Assembly: GCA_918234285.1 (NCBI GenBank)
Contig: CAKJXZ020000027.1
Span: 1-35,521, forward strand
Source of the DNA: Pseudomonadota bacterium
Lineage (GTDB): Bacteria > Pseudomonadota > Alphaproteobacteria > RF32 > CAG-239
Direction: 5' to 3'
Length of the DNA stretch: 35,521 nucleotides
Position numbers and translations under genes: made by a program. This document shows positions 2,660 through 9,072 of this stretch, piece after piece (position 1 is the stretch's first letter; every line of letters starts with the position of its first letter). The notes beneath the pieces are model-generated. The model was not told where the DNA came from. It saw only the letters and a list, made by a program, of their open reading frames with translations, and ran no database searches.

Positions 2660-2925
2660 TTTTTTGCTGCCTCCTTCTGAAAGTAAGCAGCTTCTTCTTC
2701 AAGTCCTTCTACGCAGAACTTAAAATCTTTGTATCTTTTTTCCTGTAGGATTCCAGCCGGTTTAATAGCTTCATCAACTTTCAAGCTGTTTTTTTTGTGA
2801 AAAAATCCGTCACCGGCAGCTTCATAAAACTGCACAAAATATGAATCAGATTTCTGAGCTTCCAGAGCCCTTTGTGCACGAAGGCAAAGTTCCTGCATTT
2901 TGTCATAATACTCATACCAGTTCAT
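2656..2925 (-). CDS. Hypothetical early protein
   Basis: 89-aa ORF with AAGGAG RBS, coupled to xis. Confidence 0.65.
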   Translation of the reverse strand: MNWYEYYDKMQELCLRAQRALEAQKSDSYFVQFYEAAGDGFFHKKNSLKVDEAIKPAGILQEKRYKDFKFCVEGLEEEAAYFQKEAAKK

Positions 2926-3098
2926 ACGGCAGCTCCTTTTGTCACAACATGAGCTTCAAGATAAGCTTTTAAATCAGAAATATAGTAAAGCCGGATATTG
3001 TTAATCTTGATGTAAGGAATATCAAGATTAAACATTGTAGTCCGGCTGACCGAAAGCATTTGACACGCTTCCTTAACCTTTACGCATAAACGCTCCAT
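2922..3098 (-). CDS. xis: Excisionase-like winged-HTH protein (58 aa)
   Basis: Manual translation MERLCVKVKEACQMLSVSRTTMFNLDIPYIKINNIRLYYISDLKAYLEAHVVTKGAAV with AAGGAG RBS; below the ORF-track cutoff. Confidence 0.8.
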   Translation of the reverse strand: MERLCVKVKEACQMLSVSRTTMFNLDIPYIKINNIRLYYISDLKAYLEAHVVTKGAAV

Positions 3099-3107
3099 AC
3101 GCGCTCC

Positions 3108-3176
3108 TTAAAAGAGTAGGGATTGCTCCGCAGATTACTGCCACCAGTTCCGTCGATAATTGCGGAAACAATCCCC
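3108..3176 (-). terminator. Long imperfect hairpin with ACUCUUUU tail just before the xis RBS
   Basis: gggattgctccgcagatta (3119-3137) versus taattgcggaaacaatccc (3157-3175). Confidence 0.45.
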
Positions 3177-3268
3177 GAAAAGATATTATTTTATGACCTC
3201 AGACTGACAGCCTGGAAAGTCCAAAAGAAGCGCGGCTGGTTAATGGTAGGAGAGGTTACCCCAGCCGC

Positions 3269-3322
3269 AAAAAAAAGCCCCGCGAACAGACTCGAGCGTT
3301 AGGAGAATCTGTCACAAGGCTT
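3269..3322 (-). terminator. Intrinsic terminator/attenuator in the early leader
   Basis: RNA GCCUUGUG-ACAGAUUC-loop-GAGUCUGU-U-CGCGGGGC followed by U9. Confidence 0.7.
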
Positions 3323-3478
3323 TAATATGTTATGTAACCGCCCGTCGGAAAGAAGGGTGAGGTTAGTATAACCATAGTCTGTAACGCTCGACTTGTCTCT
3401 TCTAAGCTTTGTCGTCAAGAGAAAGCTTAGAACCATTACTATAGTAATGGCGGCAAGAATTGGCAATTGCCAACCTTT
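3269..3478 (-). ncRNA. Putative ~200-nt structured leader RNA
   Basis: Lies between a TTGACA promoter and a U9 terminator. Perfect stems at 3433-3450, 3400-3432 and 3361-3373; no convincing ORF. Confidence 0.5.
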
Positions 3479-3536
3479 AATATATTAATAAACGCAAACG
3501 CCAATTCTGTCAAGAAAAAAAATAAGCATTTGCCAA
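3460..3536. promoter_or_regulatory. Three putative repressor operators
   Basis: ttggcaattgccaa (3460-3473, perfect palindrome), aacgcaaacgccaa (3491-3504) and taagcatttgccaa (3523-3536), spaced 31-32 bp apart. Confidence 0.7.
3485..3513 (-). promoter_or_regulatory. Early lytic sigma-70 promoter
   Basis: TTGACA (3513-3508), 17-nt spacer, TATTAA; the spacer overlaps the middle operator. Confidence 0.6.
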
Positions 3537-3572
3537 TTTTTTTTTACGATAATTTGAATAGAGGTATTATTT

Positions 3573-3908
3573 ATGACAGATTTCGTTAGAAGGATTGACA
3601 GTGTGCTTGAAAAAAAGAACTTTAAACGCGCTGCATTGTGCTCAGATCTTGCTTTAAGTTCAACATCAATAACAGATTGGTCCAGAAGAAACACAATTCC
3701 AGCTGGTGATATATGCATCCGCATTGCCGATTATCTGAATGTATCGGTTGAATGGCTTGTCACCGGAAAAAAAAAAGGGCTTTCATCAGAAGAGCGCAAT
3801 TTATTAAGACAGTGGTCTTATCTCACTCCCCAGCAGAAAGAAACAATTCAAACTCTGCTTGATAAGTGGGAAGAAAACTACAACGCCGCTAAAAAAGAAA
3901 ACGCCTGA
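3573..3908 (+). CDS. cI: CI-like XRE-family HTH repressor without a peptidase domain
   Basis: HTH_3 pattern RAALCSDLALSSTSITDWSRRNTIP...IADYLNVSVEWLVTG. It is the only convincing plus-strand gene and is divergent from the early operon. Confidence 0.88.
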   Translation: MTDFVRRIDSVLEKKNFKRAALCSDLALSSTSITDWSRRNTIPAGDICIRIADYLNVSVEWLVTGKKKGLSSEERNLLRQWSYLTPQQKETIQTLLDKWEENYNAAKKENA

Positions 3909-3923
3909 ACGAATTGCAGATTA

Positions 3924-5180
3924 TCAGGTTATGATTTCACCAAAGCAGTCATATTGAGCAGCTGTTATAAGCTTTGCTTCTTCTTCTGTCTGGTGTGCTG
4001 CATAGTGTTCAAGCATCGCCTGTGTTTTGTGCCCGGTCTGACTTTGCAAGGCCTTCTGATTCACGCGGTCTGCCATATAAGTTGTGTAGAAATGTCTCCA
4101 GGCATGGAAGGTTATCTGCTTTGAATCTTCAACGCTCATTCCGGCTTCTACAAGTGCACGCCGGAAAAACTTGCGGAAAATGTTCTGGTCAATCGGTTTA
4201 TTCGGCACAAGCCCCCAGAAAACAAAACCAGCTCCATTTCTATAAGGATTTGCTTCTGCAAGATGCCTGAGCTGGTCCATTATGTAAGGGAAGGCAACAA
4301 ACACAATGCGCTCTTCAGTGTTCTTTGTACACTTCAAGCCGTCTTTCTGACTGTATGAGTGCCTTACATAAATGCAGCTTTTCCCCAGATCATCACCGGT
4401 AAGAGCAAGTATTTCTCCAAGCCTAAGCCCTGTACACATTGCAAGCATTGAAGCAAGCCGCGCAAGCTCATTATCCCACTTAACACGGAAAACATTCCTT
4501 GCCATTTCCATTGTAAGAATAACGCGCTTTTTATAAACGGTTTTGTACATTATCCAGCCTTTTGAAATGTCGCGAGGAATAAGCTCATTGTTATAAGCCC
4601 ATTTCAACGGTGTAAGAACAGCTCTCAGAACGTGATTTTTTGTGTTGCCGTTCAGATCCAAATTATCCAGCCGGTCAAACTGCTGCTGGATGTCGTTTCT
4701 TGAAAGTTCTCCAAGCTTCTTATCTTTGAGGATTTCTCCCCAGTGATTTTTTATAAACTGAATTGAGTTTTCAATGTGCTTACGGTGAACCGCTTGCCCC
4801 TTGCGCTTTTTCTCGCGCAAATATTCAGATTTTTCCGGATTCCAGAAATCATAAAGCCAGGCAAGAGCATTGACGTTCATAACGCTTTCATCATTTAGAA
4901 CATAAGATGTTAAGAAACCTTTGCGCCTAAAATCATCAAGAAACATCTGCACATCCTGCATTGTGTAGTTTGATTTTCTGATTGTGTCGTAAAAAGAAAG
5001 TGTTGCAATTTCTTCTGACTTTTGATTGTACAAATCCCAGGCTTTACGCAAAGCGCGATTATAGTTCTTTTCCTTTGTGGAAAGCCAGCACATAAACTTA
5101 CCTGTGTTTTCATTGCGGAAACGCACGTAATAGAACGGTGATTCACCGCGAGTGGTGAGAGAGAAGGGGAGTTTTTTCAT
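3924..5180 (-). CDS. int: Tyrosine integrase
   Basis: TGLRLGEILAL, TKN, FHAWRHFY, GHKT and HY catalytic motifs. Start at ATG 5180 behind GAGGT. Confidence 0.95.
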   Translation of the reverse strand: MKKLPFSLTTRGESPFYYVRFRNENTGKFMCWLSTKEKNYNRALRKAWDLYNQKSEEIATLSFYDTIRKSNYTMQDVQMFLDDFRRKGFLTSYVLNDESVMNVNALAWLYDFWNPEKSEYLREKKRKGQAVHRKHIENSIQFIKNHWGEILKDKKLGELSRNDIQQQFDRLDNLDLNGNTKNHVLRAVLTPLKWAYNNELIPRDISKGWIMYKTVYKKRVILTMEMARNVFRVKWDNELARLASMLAMCTGLRLGEILALTGDDLGKSCIYVRHSYSQKDGLKCTKNTEERIVFVAFPYIMDQLRHLAEANPYRNGAGFVFWGLVPNKPIDQNIFRKFFRRALVEAGMSVEDSKQITFHAWRHFYTTYMADRVNQKALQSQTGHKTQAMLEHYAAHQTEEEAKLITAAQYDCFGEIIT

Positions 5181-5211
5181 AATAACCTCGTAAATGTTTT
5201 TACAGGTTATT
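5181..5211 (-). promoter_or_regulatory. Hairpin occluding the integrase Shine-Dalgarno sequence
   Basis: AAUAACCU-GUAAA-AACA-UUUAC-G-AGGUUAUU-AUG: 13 bp with one bulge. Confidence 0.65.
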
Positions 5212-5244
5212 CTAACTTTGAGCCTTTCCGACGGGCGTTTTTTT

Positions 5245-5552
5245 TGTACCACTTTGTGTACCACTCATTAATGCACTGTTCTTTTCAGTACATTAAAAGT
5301 GGTATTTTGTGGTATAACTCTATATTTTTTATAGAGTTGTGTATTATGATGCTTGACGGGCTCGAACCGCCGACCTGCTGCTTAGAAGTTTGGTCCGTAA
5401 AGCGTTCAAATCAATACACGATAGTTTATAATAACCTGCTAATTTGAAATAATATATTGATTTAACTGTGTTTGCAAGTACATTTTAATATATAACAGTA
5501 CACAATAATACAATGTAAAAATATATTATTGTGTACCAGATTTGAATACCAG
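5245..5552. other. attP region with arm-type integrase sites
   Basis: tgtaccact twice (5245-5253, 5257-5265), inverted agtggtatt/tgtggtata (5298-5316), and tgtgtaccag/tgaataccag (5530-5552) flanking the tRNA-derived core. Confidence 0.7.
5347..5388 (-). tRNA. 3' half of tRNA-Arg(UCU), the attP core (not a functional tRNA)
   Basis: CT-TCT-AA GCAGC AGGTC GGCGG TTCGAGC CCGTC AAGCATC A: anticodon loop, T-arm and 3' acceptor strand. The 5' anticodon stem is absent (CCAAA instead of GCTGC). Confidence 0.85.
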
Positions 5553-5556
5553 AAAT

Positions 5557-5587
5557 AAAAAAAAGAACACTCATAAAAGTGTTCTTT
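5557..5587 (-). terminator. Late-operon terminator
   Basis: aaagaacact/agtgttcttt 10-bp stem with a U-run, just after the tail fibre stop codon. Confidence 0.75.
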
Positions 5588-5598
5588 AGACAAATGTT

Positions 5599-8500
5599 TT
5601 ATCCGTTTGATATTTTTAACGTTCCAGAAGAAACATATAACTGACCTTTTGTTCCCGGATCGTTGGAAGGTAAATCATTGAATAAAACTATAAGCCTACG
5701 CCCTGAATCATAATATATAATATATTCGCTACCAAGTTGAGAGGAAAAAGAAGGACCTTCAATCGGTGTGTCCGCACAGCCATATATATCTTGCGTTGTT
5801 GTAATTGTTAATACATATCCTTCTGTTCTGCCACTATAATAATAGCGTATACTCTCGATTTCTTCACCATTAAATCTACCTGAATAATCAGATCCACCAT
5901 ATAACTGCTCAATTGAATAAGTAATACCAGCAGTTAATCCCTTTGATTGTAAATGAGAAAGAAGTGTTGCCCATGTAGAAGATGCCTGGCAAGAATAAGA
6001 AACTGAACTTGAAGATGATTCTTTATATTTTATTTTCATTGCCTGATTTTCAATCAAACCTTCAAAAACGGCATTTCCACCTATTCTAAGATTTCCAAAC
6101 AAATCCGCTGAGCCGTCTGGATTAAACTTATATCCTGAATATTTACCCATCTGATATGTGTCCAATTTTAATTGTACACCATCTTGTGTCCATTTTATTT
6201 TGATATAATTCAATTGATTATCGTTTTCATTTGGATAATCATTCATAGAAAAAGCAGTCCATGTTGTTGGTGTGTCTGTAGAGTTATTGACATAACCATA
6301 AGAAACAACATGACTACCACCATTTAAATAAGTGAAAGATGTTGCACCATTATCATCTGAAATCCTAATCTGATTACAAGATATTTGCGGTATTGGTGAC
6401 CAGTGTACACCATCATAAGAATACTCTATCAAAAGCGGTATTTTTTGATAATTTTCGCTTTGTAATGTTCCCTGAAAAAGTCCATCAACACATTTAAAAA
6501 AACCTAACGCATCTAAATATACGCCTCTTGTCAAAGTAGATTGAGGGTCAATTGTTCCATCTGGTAGATACTTACCACCATACAGTGCACCAACTTTTGT
6601 TTCACCGGAAATAACTTCTGTAATAAGCTTAATTTTATTTACAAAACAATCGTGCAGAAATACTTCAGCTGCAACAAGCCGCTTTACAAGCTGAACGGCT
6701 TTTACATTCTGATTTGAGGCATCATCAACTATATTCATAATGTCGCTGAATGATGTCATTGTGTCTGCATCATCAGAATATTCAGCCCAGGAAAGTGTGT
6801 TGAGTGCTGTCTGTATGAGCTGGTAATTATATGTCTGCTTTCTGGTTCCTTCGGCACCGCCCCATGTAACAAAATCTCCAAGCGTTGCAGCAACCGTACT
6901 GCCACTAACTGTTGCAGTAGATGTTGTCAGAGCTGTTGCAAGTCCTAAATACTTTCCGGATTTTGTTGAAATAATGTTTATTCTTCTTGCAAACTCAACG
7001 CCGCCGGATGTGGTTATTGTTAAATCAATATAACCGGCTGGAGCTGTTCCGCCGGATGTTGTTTTGAATGTAAAGGTCGCTGTTTTTGTTGTTGAATCAT
7101 AAGAAACATAACCTGTTGTTGTAATGCCCTGACTGTTAGTAAAGTCTGCAACATAACTCTTTAATGAAAGCTTTTCTGATTCTATTGCAACAAAAGCCGC
7201 AATATACATTTCCTGATAATTTGCAGTGCCGTCGCGCCTTAATGTATAGTGTAGGGTGTCTGCATCGGTCTGTAATGAAGCTGAATCAAAAGGGTAATAG
7301 GTTGACAAAACTGTTTCATCCTTTGTGCCGCTTTCATAAACATTTACAGTCTTTGTTAAAATAAACTTTCCCTGCTGTACTTCCGGCTTGTCAAACGTCC
7401 AGTTATAAGCAGTTTCCCCATCTTCTGAAATTGCATAGAGAGTGTAAGTATTAATAATTACATCTGTCATTAAAACTGGAGCTGTCCAGGTTGTGCCACC
7501 ATCAGTTGATTCTATGACGTACAAATCTCCATCCTGATAAGTCTGATGCCATTCGCCGCCAGTCTGAAGCTCTAAATCATCATCTGTATCAAGAGTTAAA
7601 TATGTACCGTCATCAAGTTCAAGCAAGCCATCCGGCGGAACTGAAGATGCACTATACTTACGCATAACATTATTGCCCGGATCTCCCTTGTCTCCCTTTT
7701 CACCCTGTGGCCCCTGACTTCCTGTGTCTCCCTTTGCGCCTTGCGGTCCTTGTGCACCGGTATCGCCTTTATCACCTTTTGCGCCATCGTCCACGATAGG
7801 AATAATGTCCTGATCAAGAAGGGTAGTAAAACCGCCTTCATAGTAGAGTTCACATCTAATGGCTTTGTAACTGCTTTGAATGGTGATTGCCATTGCCATT
7901 GTTGATTCATCAGATGATGATGAGTAGATTTGTGTCCAGTCGTTTGTTCCAGGTTCTGCAACTTCTGTTTTCCAGATTTTAAGCCTTCCGGCATAAGCTT
8001 CTACACCTTGCGTGCCGGTTTTCTTTTTTGCATGAACATTAATTGTGCCTGGTGTAAAAACACCAGCAGCGTTTTTTTTGATTGCAGCTGCATCTTCTAT
8101 AAGCCAGTACGATGTAGAAGAAGCACCAGTTGCGCCTGTGTCTCCCTTTTCACCCTGTGGCCCCTGACTTCCAGTATCGCCTTTTTCGCCCTGCTGTCCT
8201 GTGGCACCTGTAGAGCCATAAGAACAGAAAGCGGAAACAAGAAGCTCTGTTCTGTTTTCGTCTGAATAAATCTTAACAAGGTGTTTGTTTCTTCCGGTGC
8301 CACCGGTGATTGTTGCAGCTCCTTCTGTAACACTGCCTGTTGGTCCTGTCTGGCTTGCACCGCTTTCTCCTGTTCCATAAAAATCAGAATAATAAACGGT
8401 ATTTTCGCAAAGTTCACCATCTTTATAAACCAACAGAGAAACGTCAGATCCGATTGCTGACATAGAAAGACTGCATTCATACACAGGGGCGGCGGTTGCA

Positions 8501-9072
8501 TCTTCTCCAACAATTCTGATTGGTGAACTCCATTCTGAATCTTCACCAATTCGCTGGCGCATATATTTGTCACTCTGTCTGTAACGTGTACTCCAATCCT
8601 GCACTCCATCCGGGGAATACTGAATCTCCAGGCTGTCAGCGGCAATCTTCATCGGGTTGCTCCATGTTGTGCCGCCATCGTTGGACATTATGACATATTT
8701 ATCACCAGGAAGAGGGCTGTCGTGCCATTCGCCATACTCGCCGATTATGAGCTCAGAACCATCATCAAGATTAAAAAGAGAATCATCATCAAGTTCAAGA
8801 GGCGCAACGCTTGTTTCAAATGGCACGTTTGCCGGTCCGTATTTTATCAGAACATCATCACCGGCGTACTGACTCCACACATAACTTGCCTTATCTGAAG
8901 GCGCGGTTGTCGCTGGACCTGAGTAAAAACCAATATATTTTGTTTCTGCCGTTGGTGTATCTGTAAAGTCTGTACCGTCTGAATAAGCAGAATACATTAT
9001 AAAACAGCTGTATGAACTGCCAGGCTTTCCTGTAAGCGCGCTTATTTCATATCCCGAATCTATTGATGCCAT
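5599..9072 (-). CDS. Large tail fibre / host-specificity protein with collagen-like and Asp-box repeats
   Basis: GxY runs (GEKGDTGSQGPQGEKGD) and SNDGGTTW/STDGGTTW motifs; last gene of the tail module. Confidence 0.8.
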   Translation of the reverse strand: MASIDSGYEISALTGKPGSSYSCFIMYSAYSDGTDFTDTPTAETKYIGFYSGPATTAPSDKASYVWSQYAGDDVLIKYGPANVPFETSVAPLELDDDSLFNLDDGSELIIGEYGEWHDSPLPGDKYVIMSNDGGTTWSNPMKIAADSLEIQYSPDGVQDWSTRYRQSDKYMRQRIGEDSEWSSPIRIVGEDATAAPVYECSLSMSAIGSDVSLLVYKDGELCENTVYYSDFYGTGESGASQTGPTGSVTEGAATITGGTGRNKHLVKIYSDENRTELLVSAFCSYGSTGATGQQGEKGDTGSQGPQGEKGDTGATGASSTSYWLIEDAAAIKKNAAGVFTPGTINVHAKKKTGTQGVEAYAGRLKIWKTEVAEPGTNDWTQIYSSSSDESTMAMAITIQSSYKAIRCELYYEGGFTTLLDQDIIPIVDDGAKGDKGDTGAQGPQGAKGDTGSQGPQGEKGDKGDPGNNVMRKYSASSVPPDGLLELDDGTYLTLDTDDDLELQTGGEWHQTYQDGDLYVIESTDGGTTWTAPVLMTDVIINTYTLYAISEDGETAYNWTFDKPEVQQGKFILTKTVNVYESGTKDETVLSTYYPFDSASLQTDADTLHYTLRRDGTANYQEMYIAAFVAIESEKLSLKSYVADFTNSQGITTTGYVSYDSTTKTATFTFKTTSGGTAPAGYIDLTITTSGGVEFARRINIISTKSGKYLGLATALTTSTATVSGSTVAATLGDFVTWGGAEGTRKQTYNYQLIQTALNTLSWAEYSDDADTMTSFSDIMNIVDDASNQNVKAVQLVKRLVAAEVFLHDCFVNKIKLITEVISGETKVGALYGGKYLPDGTIDPQSTLTRGVYLDALGFFKCVDGLFQGTLQSENYQKIPLLIEYSYDGVHWSPIPQISCNQIRISDDNGATSFTYLNGGSHVVSYGYVNNSTDTPTTWTAFSMNDYPNENDNQLNYIKIKWTQDGVQLKLDTYQMGKYSGYKFNPDGSADLFGNLRIGGNAVFEGLIENQAMKIKYKESSSSSVSYSCQASSTWATLLSHLQSKGLTAGITYSIEQLYGGSDYSGRFNGEEIESIRYYYSGRTEGYVLTITTTQDIYGCADTPIEGPSFSSQLGSEYIIYYDSGRRLIVLFNDLPSNDPGTKGQLYVSSGTLKISNG
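7689..8172. repeat. 34-bp exact direct repeat in the collagen-coding segments
   Basis: tgtctcccttttcaccctgtggcccctgacttcc at 7689-7722 and 8139-8172, 450 bp apart and in frame. Confidence 0.9.

Follow-up and report, generated by a model that had tools for sequence, protein, structure and literature searches.

The DNA analyzed here, referred to as the window, is a complete contig of 35,521 bases within an assembly of 2,005,265 bases, and it is an unintegrated phage genome. Its immunity and integration genes lie close together: a cI-like repressor gene on the plus strand converges with the tyrosine integrase gene int on the minus strand, and leftward from the repressor a spacer of 470 nucleotides (nt) leads to a minus-strand gene for a protein of 58 amino acids (aa) of the HTH_17 family, referred to here as xis-like. 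The subject of this work is a bipartite element, made up of box 1 and box 2, which occurs twice and in inverted orientation, once in the cI-xis spacer and once just upstream of int (Table 1). An earlier reading of the letters alone, termed the sequence-only reading below, had described the cI-side copy as CGCCCGTCGGAAAG-aagggtgag-GTTAGTATAACC (plus strand, 3339-3373) and the int-side copy as CGCCCGTCGGAAAG-gctcaaa-GTTAGAATAACC (minus strand, 5237-5205), and both are present in the window as described. The copies match in 14/14 positions of box 1 and 11/12 positions of box 2, and the pair appears as inverted repeat I3 in a repeat scan of the window. The 14-mer has two exact matches in the window and four with up to three mismatches, against 0.70 expected, a number reached in 0 of 100 shuffles. 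For the 12-mer GTTAGWATAACC, two perfect matches and 13 with up to two mismatches were found, against 3.99 expected. In the whole assembly, the exact 14-mer is confined to these two sites; a single copy with one mismatch lies on contig C22, in what we read as a coding sequence.

Table 1. Features of the integration and immunity region and its surroundings, in window coordinates.
Feature	Coordinates	Strand	Basis or remark
Box 1, cI-side (CGCCCGTCGGAAAG)	3339..3352	+	Antisense in the leader RNA, predicted apical part of hairpin P4
Box 2, cI-side (GTTAGTATAACC)	3362..3373	+	Leader RNA reads GGUUAUACUAAC, complement of the int anti-SD arm
Box 1, int-side (CGCCCGUCGGAAAG in the int leader)	5224..5237	-	Predicted 5' strand and loop of hairpin H1 in relatives
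Box 2, int-side, and SD-sequestering hairpin	Box 2 5216..5205; whole 5181..5216	-	Sequence and folding
Leftward early promoter P_L	3485..3513	-	-35 TTGACA 3513..3508; 17-nt spacer with operator half-site; -10 TATTAA 3490..3485
P2, 18-nt perfect palindrome/hairpin (CCATTACTATAGTAATGG)	3433..3450	-	RNAalifold: one pair (columns 38/49) occurs as AU, UA, CG and GC
P3, long hairpin, conserved loop (C)UUGAC	3400..3432	-	Inverted repeat I11
PK 5' strand, long-range helix (UCGAGCGUUA)	3382..3391	-	10-nt perfect complement to 3301..3292
Conserved AU-rich linker between P4 and terminator (TATAT box on the plus strand)	3322..3330	-	Alignment of 17 spacers; unpaired in folds
Intrinsic terminator of the leader	3269..3321	-	GC-rich stem 3321..3277; loop holds PK 3' strand 3301..3292; U8 3276..3269
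cI-like repressor	3573..3908	+	PF07022, E 3.7e-10
int, tyrosine integrase, 418 aa	3924..5180	-	Pfam PF00589, E 2.4e-17; PHROG 1, E 5e-33
First gene after the leader, HTH_17 protein, 58 aa, excisionase/AlpA-like	2922..3098	-	PF12728, E 5.3e-5, weaker than the Pfam cut-off
Two direct TGGTACA repeats, 11 nt apart	5243..5262	-	Nearly invariant in int upstream alignment
attP core, 3' part of tRNA-Arg(UCU), anticodon loop to acceptor end	5347..5388	-	Sequence and alignment
R3 (CAGGUUAUUAUAA)	5426..5438	-	Inverted repeat I20; complementary to int box 2, 12/13
P_att, sigma-70-like promoter pointing at int, upstream of the attP core	5449..5477	-	TTGCAA-17-TATTAT
Collagen/BNR-repeat protein, last minus-strand ORF before attP	9072..5599	-	Map of open reading frames (ORFs) and family search

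The two copies were compared with those of related phages. Integrase searches returned 65 related loci, numbered with an L below, from viral and metagenome contigs; relatives of Int were not found in species genomes, and a blastn search of 2900-5500 against a phage record collection gave no match. In 32 of the 65 loci, the sequence contained matches to cI and xis as well as the start of int and no less than 130 nt before it; after removal of 10 exact duplicates, the 22 distinct loci and the window formed a set of 23. In each, the 130-nt int leader was compared with the cI-xis spacer read in the cI sense. The conservation of both copies in related phages, which the sequence-only reading had proposed to check, was borne out: in 22 of the 23 loci, leader and spacer have in common an exact word of 11-16 nt that contains the box 1 core. 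This word is the longest shared one in 20 of the 23; L037 and L038 have a longer match, a box 2 word of 13 nt, ahead of a box 1 word of 11 nt. All have the core CCCG(C/T)C, and its flanks vary by lineage yet agree between the two copies of one phage, about nine lineage-specific versions of box 1 being counted by eye (e.g., CGCCCGTCGGAAAG, CCGCCCGCCGGTAA, GCCACCCGCCA, CCGCCCGCTGAGG, CTCCCGCCGGGG, and GTCCGCCCGCTAAG). In a more distant lineage, L057 and L058 (Int 65% identical), box 1 is the unrelated AT-rich sequence TGAAGTTTTTT, matching 11/11 in both copies, and box 2 is AACCTAAA/TTTAGGTT within the same architecture. Conservation hence lies in the match between the copies and not in their sequence.

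The cI-side copy is predicted to form part of a structured and terminated early-operon leader of about 210 nt, in which it is antisense to the int copy. This is based on an alignment of 17 cI-xis spacers and on covariation evaluated with RNAalifold on 14 sequences. The -35 element of the leftward early promoter P_L (TGTCAA on the plus strand) is invariant in the 17-spacer alignment, and TATTAT/TATTAA is found by eye 17 nt away in the relatives, giving a predicted start near 3478; the operator palindromes in and beside P_L vary between immunity groups (TTGGCAATTGCCAA in the window). At the other end, the terminator has G-U pairs on the minus-strand RNA, and its T-run is kept in 14/14 aligned sequences. 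The minus-strand RNA from 3478 to 3269 that the sequence-only reading had invoked thus matches a conserved promoter and an intrinsic terminator. A different early promoter, TTGCCA-17-TATAGT (3466..3438), was considered and rejected for lack of conservation; in other phages, the palindrome centred on its TATAGT reads TACCATGGTA.

Several structural elements are predicted between these ends. The palindrome P2, which reads CTGATACCATGGTATCAG in relatives, lies just downstream of the first operator and might serve a dimeric early protein as a binding site on the DNA, instead of or besides forming an RNA hairpin. The hairpin P3 shows compensatory changes in 11/11 pairs across the 14 sequences and is absent from L014 and L054. 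A long-range helix equivalent to PK (7-10 nt) is the best match at the same relative place in 16 of the 17 sequences and is formed by 13 different sequences, with individual shuffle counts of 2-50 in 500; between L057 and L058 it carries a compensatory change from U-A to C-G. This helix joins the segment 5' of antisense box 2 and hairpin P4 to the loop of the terminator hairpin. In the predicted P4 fold, antisense box 2 pairs with the AUAAC 3' of box 1, and antisense box 1 occupies the apical stem and loop. The P4 region folds better as leader strand than as its complement in 12 of the 17 sequences, with summed energies of -244.5 and -179.8 kcal/mol, respectively. An Rfam search on 2800-5700 gave three chance-level matches only (best E 0.48-0.84), and the early leader (3269-3480, minus strand) is a new conserved structured RNA without an Rfam match. 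The possibility that antisense box 1 itself forms a terminator was discarded: the T8 run after it is specific to the window and, by eye, lacks a stem.

The stretch between the leader terminator and the start of the xis-like gene (3100-3268, minus strand) is also conserved. Along it lie a conserved GGACUUUCC, a short hairpin that covaries, GUCAUAUAAAAAC, and a long stem that also covaries and has a conserved loop, reading CUGCAAUGGAUAAAUC in relatives; two contigs from RNA libraries end around it, at 3255 and 3277. Possible roles are those of a second promoter, a processing site or a protein-binding 5' untranslated region.

The partner RNA would be the int leader. An alignment of 16 int upstream regions shows a constant order, namely, tRNA part, AT-rich hairpin, about 50 variable nt, TGGTACA-N4-TGGTACA, box 1, and box 2; the TGGTACA repeats are putative arm-type sites of Int. 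The start of int was taken as the ATG at 5180, and the GTG at 5264 given by a mechanical ORF listing was rejected. The proposal that the last bases of the int copy form the arm that masks the Shine-Dalgarno sequence (SD) holds: AAUAACCU-GUAAA (5211..5199) pairs with UUUAC-G-AGGUUAUU (5194..5181) in a hairpin of 13 base pairs, the 3' arm of which contains the SD GAGG (5189..5186), 6 nt upstream of the ATG. A hairpin that pairs a 5' arm holding box 2 with a 3' arm holding the SD forms in 17 of 17 leaders folded singly, the arm sequences differing in the L014, L005, and L017 groups. Opening of the region from -16 to +3 is predicted to cost 3.4-14 kcal/mol over these leaders, with a mean of 10.0 and the lowest value for L059 (3.4). 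RNAalifold on 15 int leaders returned no pairs, owing to unequal loop lengths and misregister of the alignment, so that single-sequence folds were used instead. Upstream of this hairpin, box 1 forms the 5' strand and loop of the hairpin H1 in relatives (e.g., UUCCGC...GUGGAA), which by eye is clear in 14/17 leaders and weak in the window.

No promoter conserved in the alignment was seen by eye between the attP core and int. Of 13 unintegrated relatives, 11 have their best promoter match (7-11 of 12 matches) at the place of P_att, beyond the core. Two relatives, L017 and L059, are integrated forms in which a whole co-oriented tRNA, preceded by TTGAAA-17-TATATT, stands at the place of the core. 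Transcripts of int can thus originate beyond attP when the genome is free, and in the prophage they plausibly arise by read-through from the tRNA gene; either route would place both boxes inside the leader.

When early leader and int leader are folded together, RNAcofold predicts a heteroduplex with a free-energy difference (ddG) of -5 to -34 kcal/mol. The mean cost of opening the SD region is 10.0 kcal/mol when the int leader is folded by itself and drops to 3.6 once the cognate early leader is added, compared with 8.7 with three distant non-cognate leaders and 9.0 with shuffled ones; the cognate value is below the non-cognate mean in 17/17 and below the shuffled mean in 15/17. This reduction follows from the complementarity and is therefore not independent evidence. 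Likewise, in a 17 x 17 RNAduplex matrix the cognate partner is best in 7 of 17 rows and the mean of the diagonal is -55.9 versus -42.2 off the diagonal, which mostly restates sequence similarity. The predicted geometry is that of an activator, in that the pairing takes up the anti-SD arm but does not reach SD or AUG.

What the sequence and its comparison among relatives show directly is the presence and co-variation of the two copies, the fold of the early leader with its promoter and terminator, and the hairpin at the int SD; that the two RNAs meet, with activation as the outcome, is what we infer. In the explanation that we favour, the copies are the two halves of an RNA-RNA recognition pair, by means of which the early leader activates Int translation in trans upon derepression. 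We assign this a rough probability of 55%, and it is rather likely that the two RNAs pair, whatever the outcome. P_L would produce the structured leader, ending at the U8 of its terminator, with read-through entering the xis-like gene, and hairpin P4 of this leader would carry antisense box 2 and box 1. The int mRNA would present box 1, within H1 or as a single-stranded toehold, followed by box 2 as the 5' arm of the SD-sequestering hairpin. In the lysogen, cI would shut P_L, int would lie directly downstream of the co-oriented host tRNA-Arg gene, and any int transcript would be translationally locked. Once P_L is on, during infection or induction, the leader would pair with box 1, zip into box 2 and take the anti-SD arm away from its partner, permitting Int translation. 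Int synthesis would thereby be tied to derepression despite the distance from P_L to int, which lies about 33 kb downstream in the sole leftward gene orientation; because this is the only direction of transcription, the coupling cannot be transcriptional. As the xis-like gene is the first after the leader terminator, an RNA that unlocks int would supply Int and Xis together at induction.

A number of observations weigh against this explanation. In the minimum-energy cofold the SD is still mostly paired in 15/17, and in that of the window box 1 alone pairs intermolecularly. The P4 region of the window itself folds better as plus strand (-16.2 kcal/mol, versus -12.1 on the leader strand). The two copies of L049 are mismatched and have only 8 nt (CCCGCCGG) in common; in L014, L054, and L037, pairing reaches, as we read it, only about 2 bases of the anti-SD arm; and L033 has the int-leader boxes, but no partner and no matches to cI or xis were found within 3 kb downstream. 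The GC core CCCG(C/T)C is retained in every lineage but one, is conserved beyond what pairing alone demands, and also fits a site for a sequence-specific protein. Differences between the copies comprise 25 G-U-compatible and 14 incompatible transitions, counts that are non-independent and include the flanks. Transcript data, in the form of contigs assembled from bovine-gut metatranscriptomes, are strandless, may contain DNA and cannot show ends, and one of these contigs (210 nt, 3219-3428) runs beyond the leader terminator. The toehold mechanism suggested in the sequence-only reading is accordingly upheld in part: the leader RNA matches a promoter and a terminator, its complementarity to the int leader co-varies, and the cognate leader lowers the cost of SD opening, but the cofold minimum leaves the SD paired in most phages and activation is the presumed outcome.

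Further contigs from the same RNA libraries cover both copies. One of 223 nt spans 3259-3453 plus 28 letters of a relative's operator, so that its ends are near the predicted start and terminator end of the leader. On the int side, contigs of 167 and 213 nt (5167-5332 and 5102-5314, respectively) extend across the boxes and 77-95 nt beyond box 1, and contigs at depth 181-500 match 5345-5388 only. Within 2900-5500, the segment 3509-5074 is without cover, which is uninterpretable because the relatives in those runs diverge there. These contigs weakly hint that both copy regions are transcribed through, and, equally weakly, that 5203 is not the only start of int transcripts.

Alternative explanations were weighed on the same evidence. 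Phage lambda has two CII-dependent promoters, PRE and PI, with similar elements directed toward cI and int, and in analogy with these the sequence-only reading had proposed that TAGTAT/TAGAAT are the -10 boxes of an activated promoter pair. The present phages resemble lambda in having two similar elements, one toward cI and one toward int, but differ in the absence of a conserved -10 and of a fixed geometry, in that no CII homologue was found, and in the location of the elements in transcribed leaders. At the aligned position, hexamers with A2, T6 and at least four of six matches to TATAAT occur in 5/16 int-side and 1/16 cI-side copies, and the conserved part of box 2 is ATAACC, with a C at the would-be -7, where the -10 of sigma-70 requires a T. 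On the int side, the box 1-to-box 2 span ranges over 24-48 nt, on the cI side over 21-34 nt; the two are equal in 4/16 loci, and RNA-library contigs bridge both copies. Such a promoter pair fails the comparative test and is not supported by the sequences compared. Its more general form, the main rival, holds that the copies are DNA sites for a single phage DNA-binding regulator with which they drift together, either a CII-like activator, in one variant with the conserved TATAT box that closely precedes the cI-side box 1 serving as plus-strand -10, or an excisionase-repressor like Apl or Cox. A protein that co-evolves with its sites predicts the co-variation of the two copies equally well and would account for the strongly conserved GC core. 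By eye, every relative has a -10-like TATAT(G/A/T)T 10-17 nt ahead of its cI-side box 1, and the cI-side copy points at cI, the sole real plus-strand gene. For an Apl/Cox-like regulator, the HTH_17 protein that the early operon encodes first is the obvious candidate. Yet the unconserved hexamers and the variable span, which differs between the two copies of one phage in 12/16 loci over a range of 21-48 nt, speak against a DNA regulator as well. Among the ORFs of the leftward block that were searched (7 with Pfam, 15 with PHROGs), the weak HTH_17 match is the only one to a known regulator family, CII-like or other, although novel proteins could be activators. The phased repeats expected of Apl/Cox-type sites are absent, there being one bipartite copy at each place, and, viewed from the core, the int-side copy comes after the TGGTACA arm repeats instead of between core and arm. 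Moreover, hairpin potential with G-U pairs on one strand has no role in this explanation, and L057 retains the pair though hicAB occupies the place of cI. We regard a DNA regulator, including the TATAT variant, as rather improbable.

Less probable still, though the predicted duplexes are favourable, is that the RNAs pair with an outcome other than activation, such as an RNase III target or a block that lowers Int, or an effect on the terminator and pseudoknot fold of the early leader and hence on read-through into xis. The antisense boxes lie between the two strands of PK, which reaches the terminator loop, so that pairing could alter termination, and the closed SD in most cofold minima fits such an outcome. 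The pairing, however, ends at the anti-SD arm with SD and AUG uncovered, the cognate leader reduces the cost of SD opening, and repression of Int at the time when P_L fires would make little sense, as excision needs Int. Finally, the copies might act in the same sense, as a 5' leader element (H1 and box 2, nut-like) shared by cI-directed and int transcripts, through which one RNA-binding factor would co-regulate both. Order and orientation relative to cI and int are indeed identical, H1 is foldable in most int leaders, and the TATAT box could set a plus-strand start just before box 1. We nevertheless consider this very unlikely: besides the better folding of the cI-side region as minus-strand RNA in most sequences, the covarying PK helix spans the putative plus-strand start and so belongs to the leftward RNA, a plus-strand promoter with a usable -35 is not evidenced, and L057 has no cI downstream. 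As to a nut-type element, the cI-side copy is antisense, not sense, in the early leftward leader, and Rfam gave no match above chance in 2800-5700. Site-specific inversion between the copies was also rejected, since it would cut P_L off its operon and since the arrangement is identical in every relative in which int, cI, and xis were located.

The RNA-pairing explanation can be extended by the sequence R3 between P_att and the attP core. R3 is placed near the 5' end of the predicted P_att transcript, with AGGTT 11 nt after the -10. At its place, complementarity of 7-11 nt to the box 2 region occurs in 9/13 unintegrated relatives, and in L005 and L020 the sequences are different and covary with box 2 (AATTATTAAGG and TATTAAGGTTT; 0/1000 shuffles each). 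Predicted SD accessibility in the presence of R3 in cis rises in 6/13 (0.60 versus 0.25 in the window), is unchanged in 4, and falls in 3. Integration would separate P_att and R3 from int. It is conceivable, though doubtful, that a three-part RNA device gates Int translation by sensing both integration state and repression, R3 in cis and the early leader in trans neutralising box 2. In cis, R3 near the 5' end of the P_att transcript would neutralise box 2 until integration cuts P_att and R3 from int; in trans, the terminated early leader, made only after derepression, would use box 1 as toehold. A resting prophage would then make a locked int message, which an infecting genome or induced prophage would unlock. 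In the same area, a 23-nt inverted repeat, 83% complementary, links the int 3' end (3913-3935) to the R3 region (5428-5450); it was not seen in L004 and is probably due to chance.

Turning to the gene layout, ORFs of at least 90 aa that are not nested in a larger ORF of the opposite strand are all on the minus strand except one, the cI-like repressor. Six further early ORFs beyond the HTH_17 gene gave no family match in Pfam and PHROG searches; these are followed, across the contig ends, by terminase and more minus-strand ORFs up to the collagen/BNR-repeat protein, which is read as tail fibre. A terminator-like hairpin lies between this last ORF and the attP region. The stop codons of the convergent cI and int genes are 15 nt apart (3908-3924), and no terminator-like hairpin was found between them, so that each transcript should extend antisense into the other gene. 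At least five groups of operator palindromes (3455-3541) and cI types can be told apart (TTGGCAATTGCCAA, AACAACATTTGTTGTT, AACTCTCATTTGAGAGTT, GTACG-type, and TTCCAA-type); they do not track the box 1 types, indicating that the immunity cassette is swapped between otherwise similar backbones. In L057, on a contig of 415 kb, a HicA/HicB-like pair (4304-4869) stands in the expected place of cI, and operator, leader, and int-leader pair are retained.

The GC content of the contig is 38.6%, against 43.4% for the genome. The tRNA-Arg(TCT) of the assembly (contig C3:72223-72299) has only 9 nt in common with the phage attachment fragment, and a second copy of this fragment (attB) was not found in the assembly, so the phage host may differ from this assembly bin. 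An hfq gene is present in the assembly, but was given no weight because, on these grounds, the assignment of the contig to a host is tentative.

Among known systems, RNAs that activate translation by an anti-antisense mechanism, such as DsrA/RprA with rpoS, RNAIII with hla, and GlmZ with glmS, and the synthetic toehold switches show the same logic: a leader hides the SD, the activator complements the anti-SD arm, and a single-stranded or loop toehold lies upstream. An SD-sequestering hairpin, as expected of such a target, is present in all 17 int leaders, and complementarity to the anti-SD arm and the adjacent upstream segment is found as well, being weak in L049 and limited to about 2 nt of the arm in L014, L054, and L037. 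The present pair differs from these activators in that the regulator is the 5' leader of an early operon and the target an integrase, in the two helices with a variable internal loop, and in the regulator segment lying inside a hairpin clamped by a long-range helix. In lambda, the sib element 3' of int is destructive by way of RNase III. R3 would resemble sib as a cis RNA element controlling int that attP integration parts from int, which makes Int expression dependent on the integration state, but it would lie 5' of int and be permissive, its support being mixed. The c4 RNA of phages P1 and P7 is a co-varying antisense RNA with bipartite a'/b' elements. With c4 and the CI RNA of phage P4, the early leader would have in common that a leader-derived phage RNA is complementary to short repeats elsewhere that co-vary between heteroimmune relatives, the c4 site being bipartite too; those RNAs, however, are immunity factors that repress their own operon via premature termination or occlusion of the ribosome binding site (RBS), whereas here immunity rests on the cI protein and the predicted effect is activation of int. 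The complementary sites of the P4 CI RNA are seqA and seqC in the summary given in PMC4825925. Among the systems compared, the closest is IsrK of the Salmonella prophage Gifsy-1; this terminated leader RNA opens an inhibitory helix and thereby switches on translation in trans (PMC4825925). As with IsrK, a short RNA arising by termination of a prophage leader would act in trans on a translationally inactive mRNA, pairing with one strand of the inhibitory helix and opening the RBS; IsrK acts on the read-through form of its own transcript (PMC4825925), whereas the target proposed here, with its predicted bipartite site, is a separate int transcript from the opposite end of the prophage. A literature search, judged on titles and abstract openings, returned nothing on an early leader pairing with an int leader, and the pairing would most likely represent a new form of translational control by small RNAs in the phage lysis-lysogeny circuit.

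A temperate phage must make integrase when it infects and when it is induced, but must not do so in the resting lysogen. In the textbook cases this is achieved by transcriptional control (PL/N and CII/PI), complemented by sib retroregulation. The phages described here, a family of about 35 kb from bovine-gut and other metagenomes, have int at the far end of a one-directional genome, beside the tRNA attachment site, and seem to use RNA instead, with a locked RBS on the int message and the key in the leader of the early promoter. If this is true, the two copies would be a natural toehold-type switch between two phage transcripts, and the coupling of excision to derepression in phages whose int lies outside the early operon becomes testable. 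The family would also provide a compact set of RNA key-lock pairs that co-vary and hence are orthogonal.

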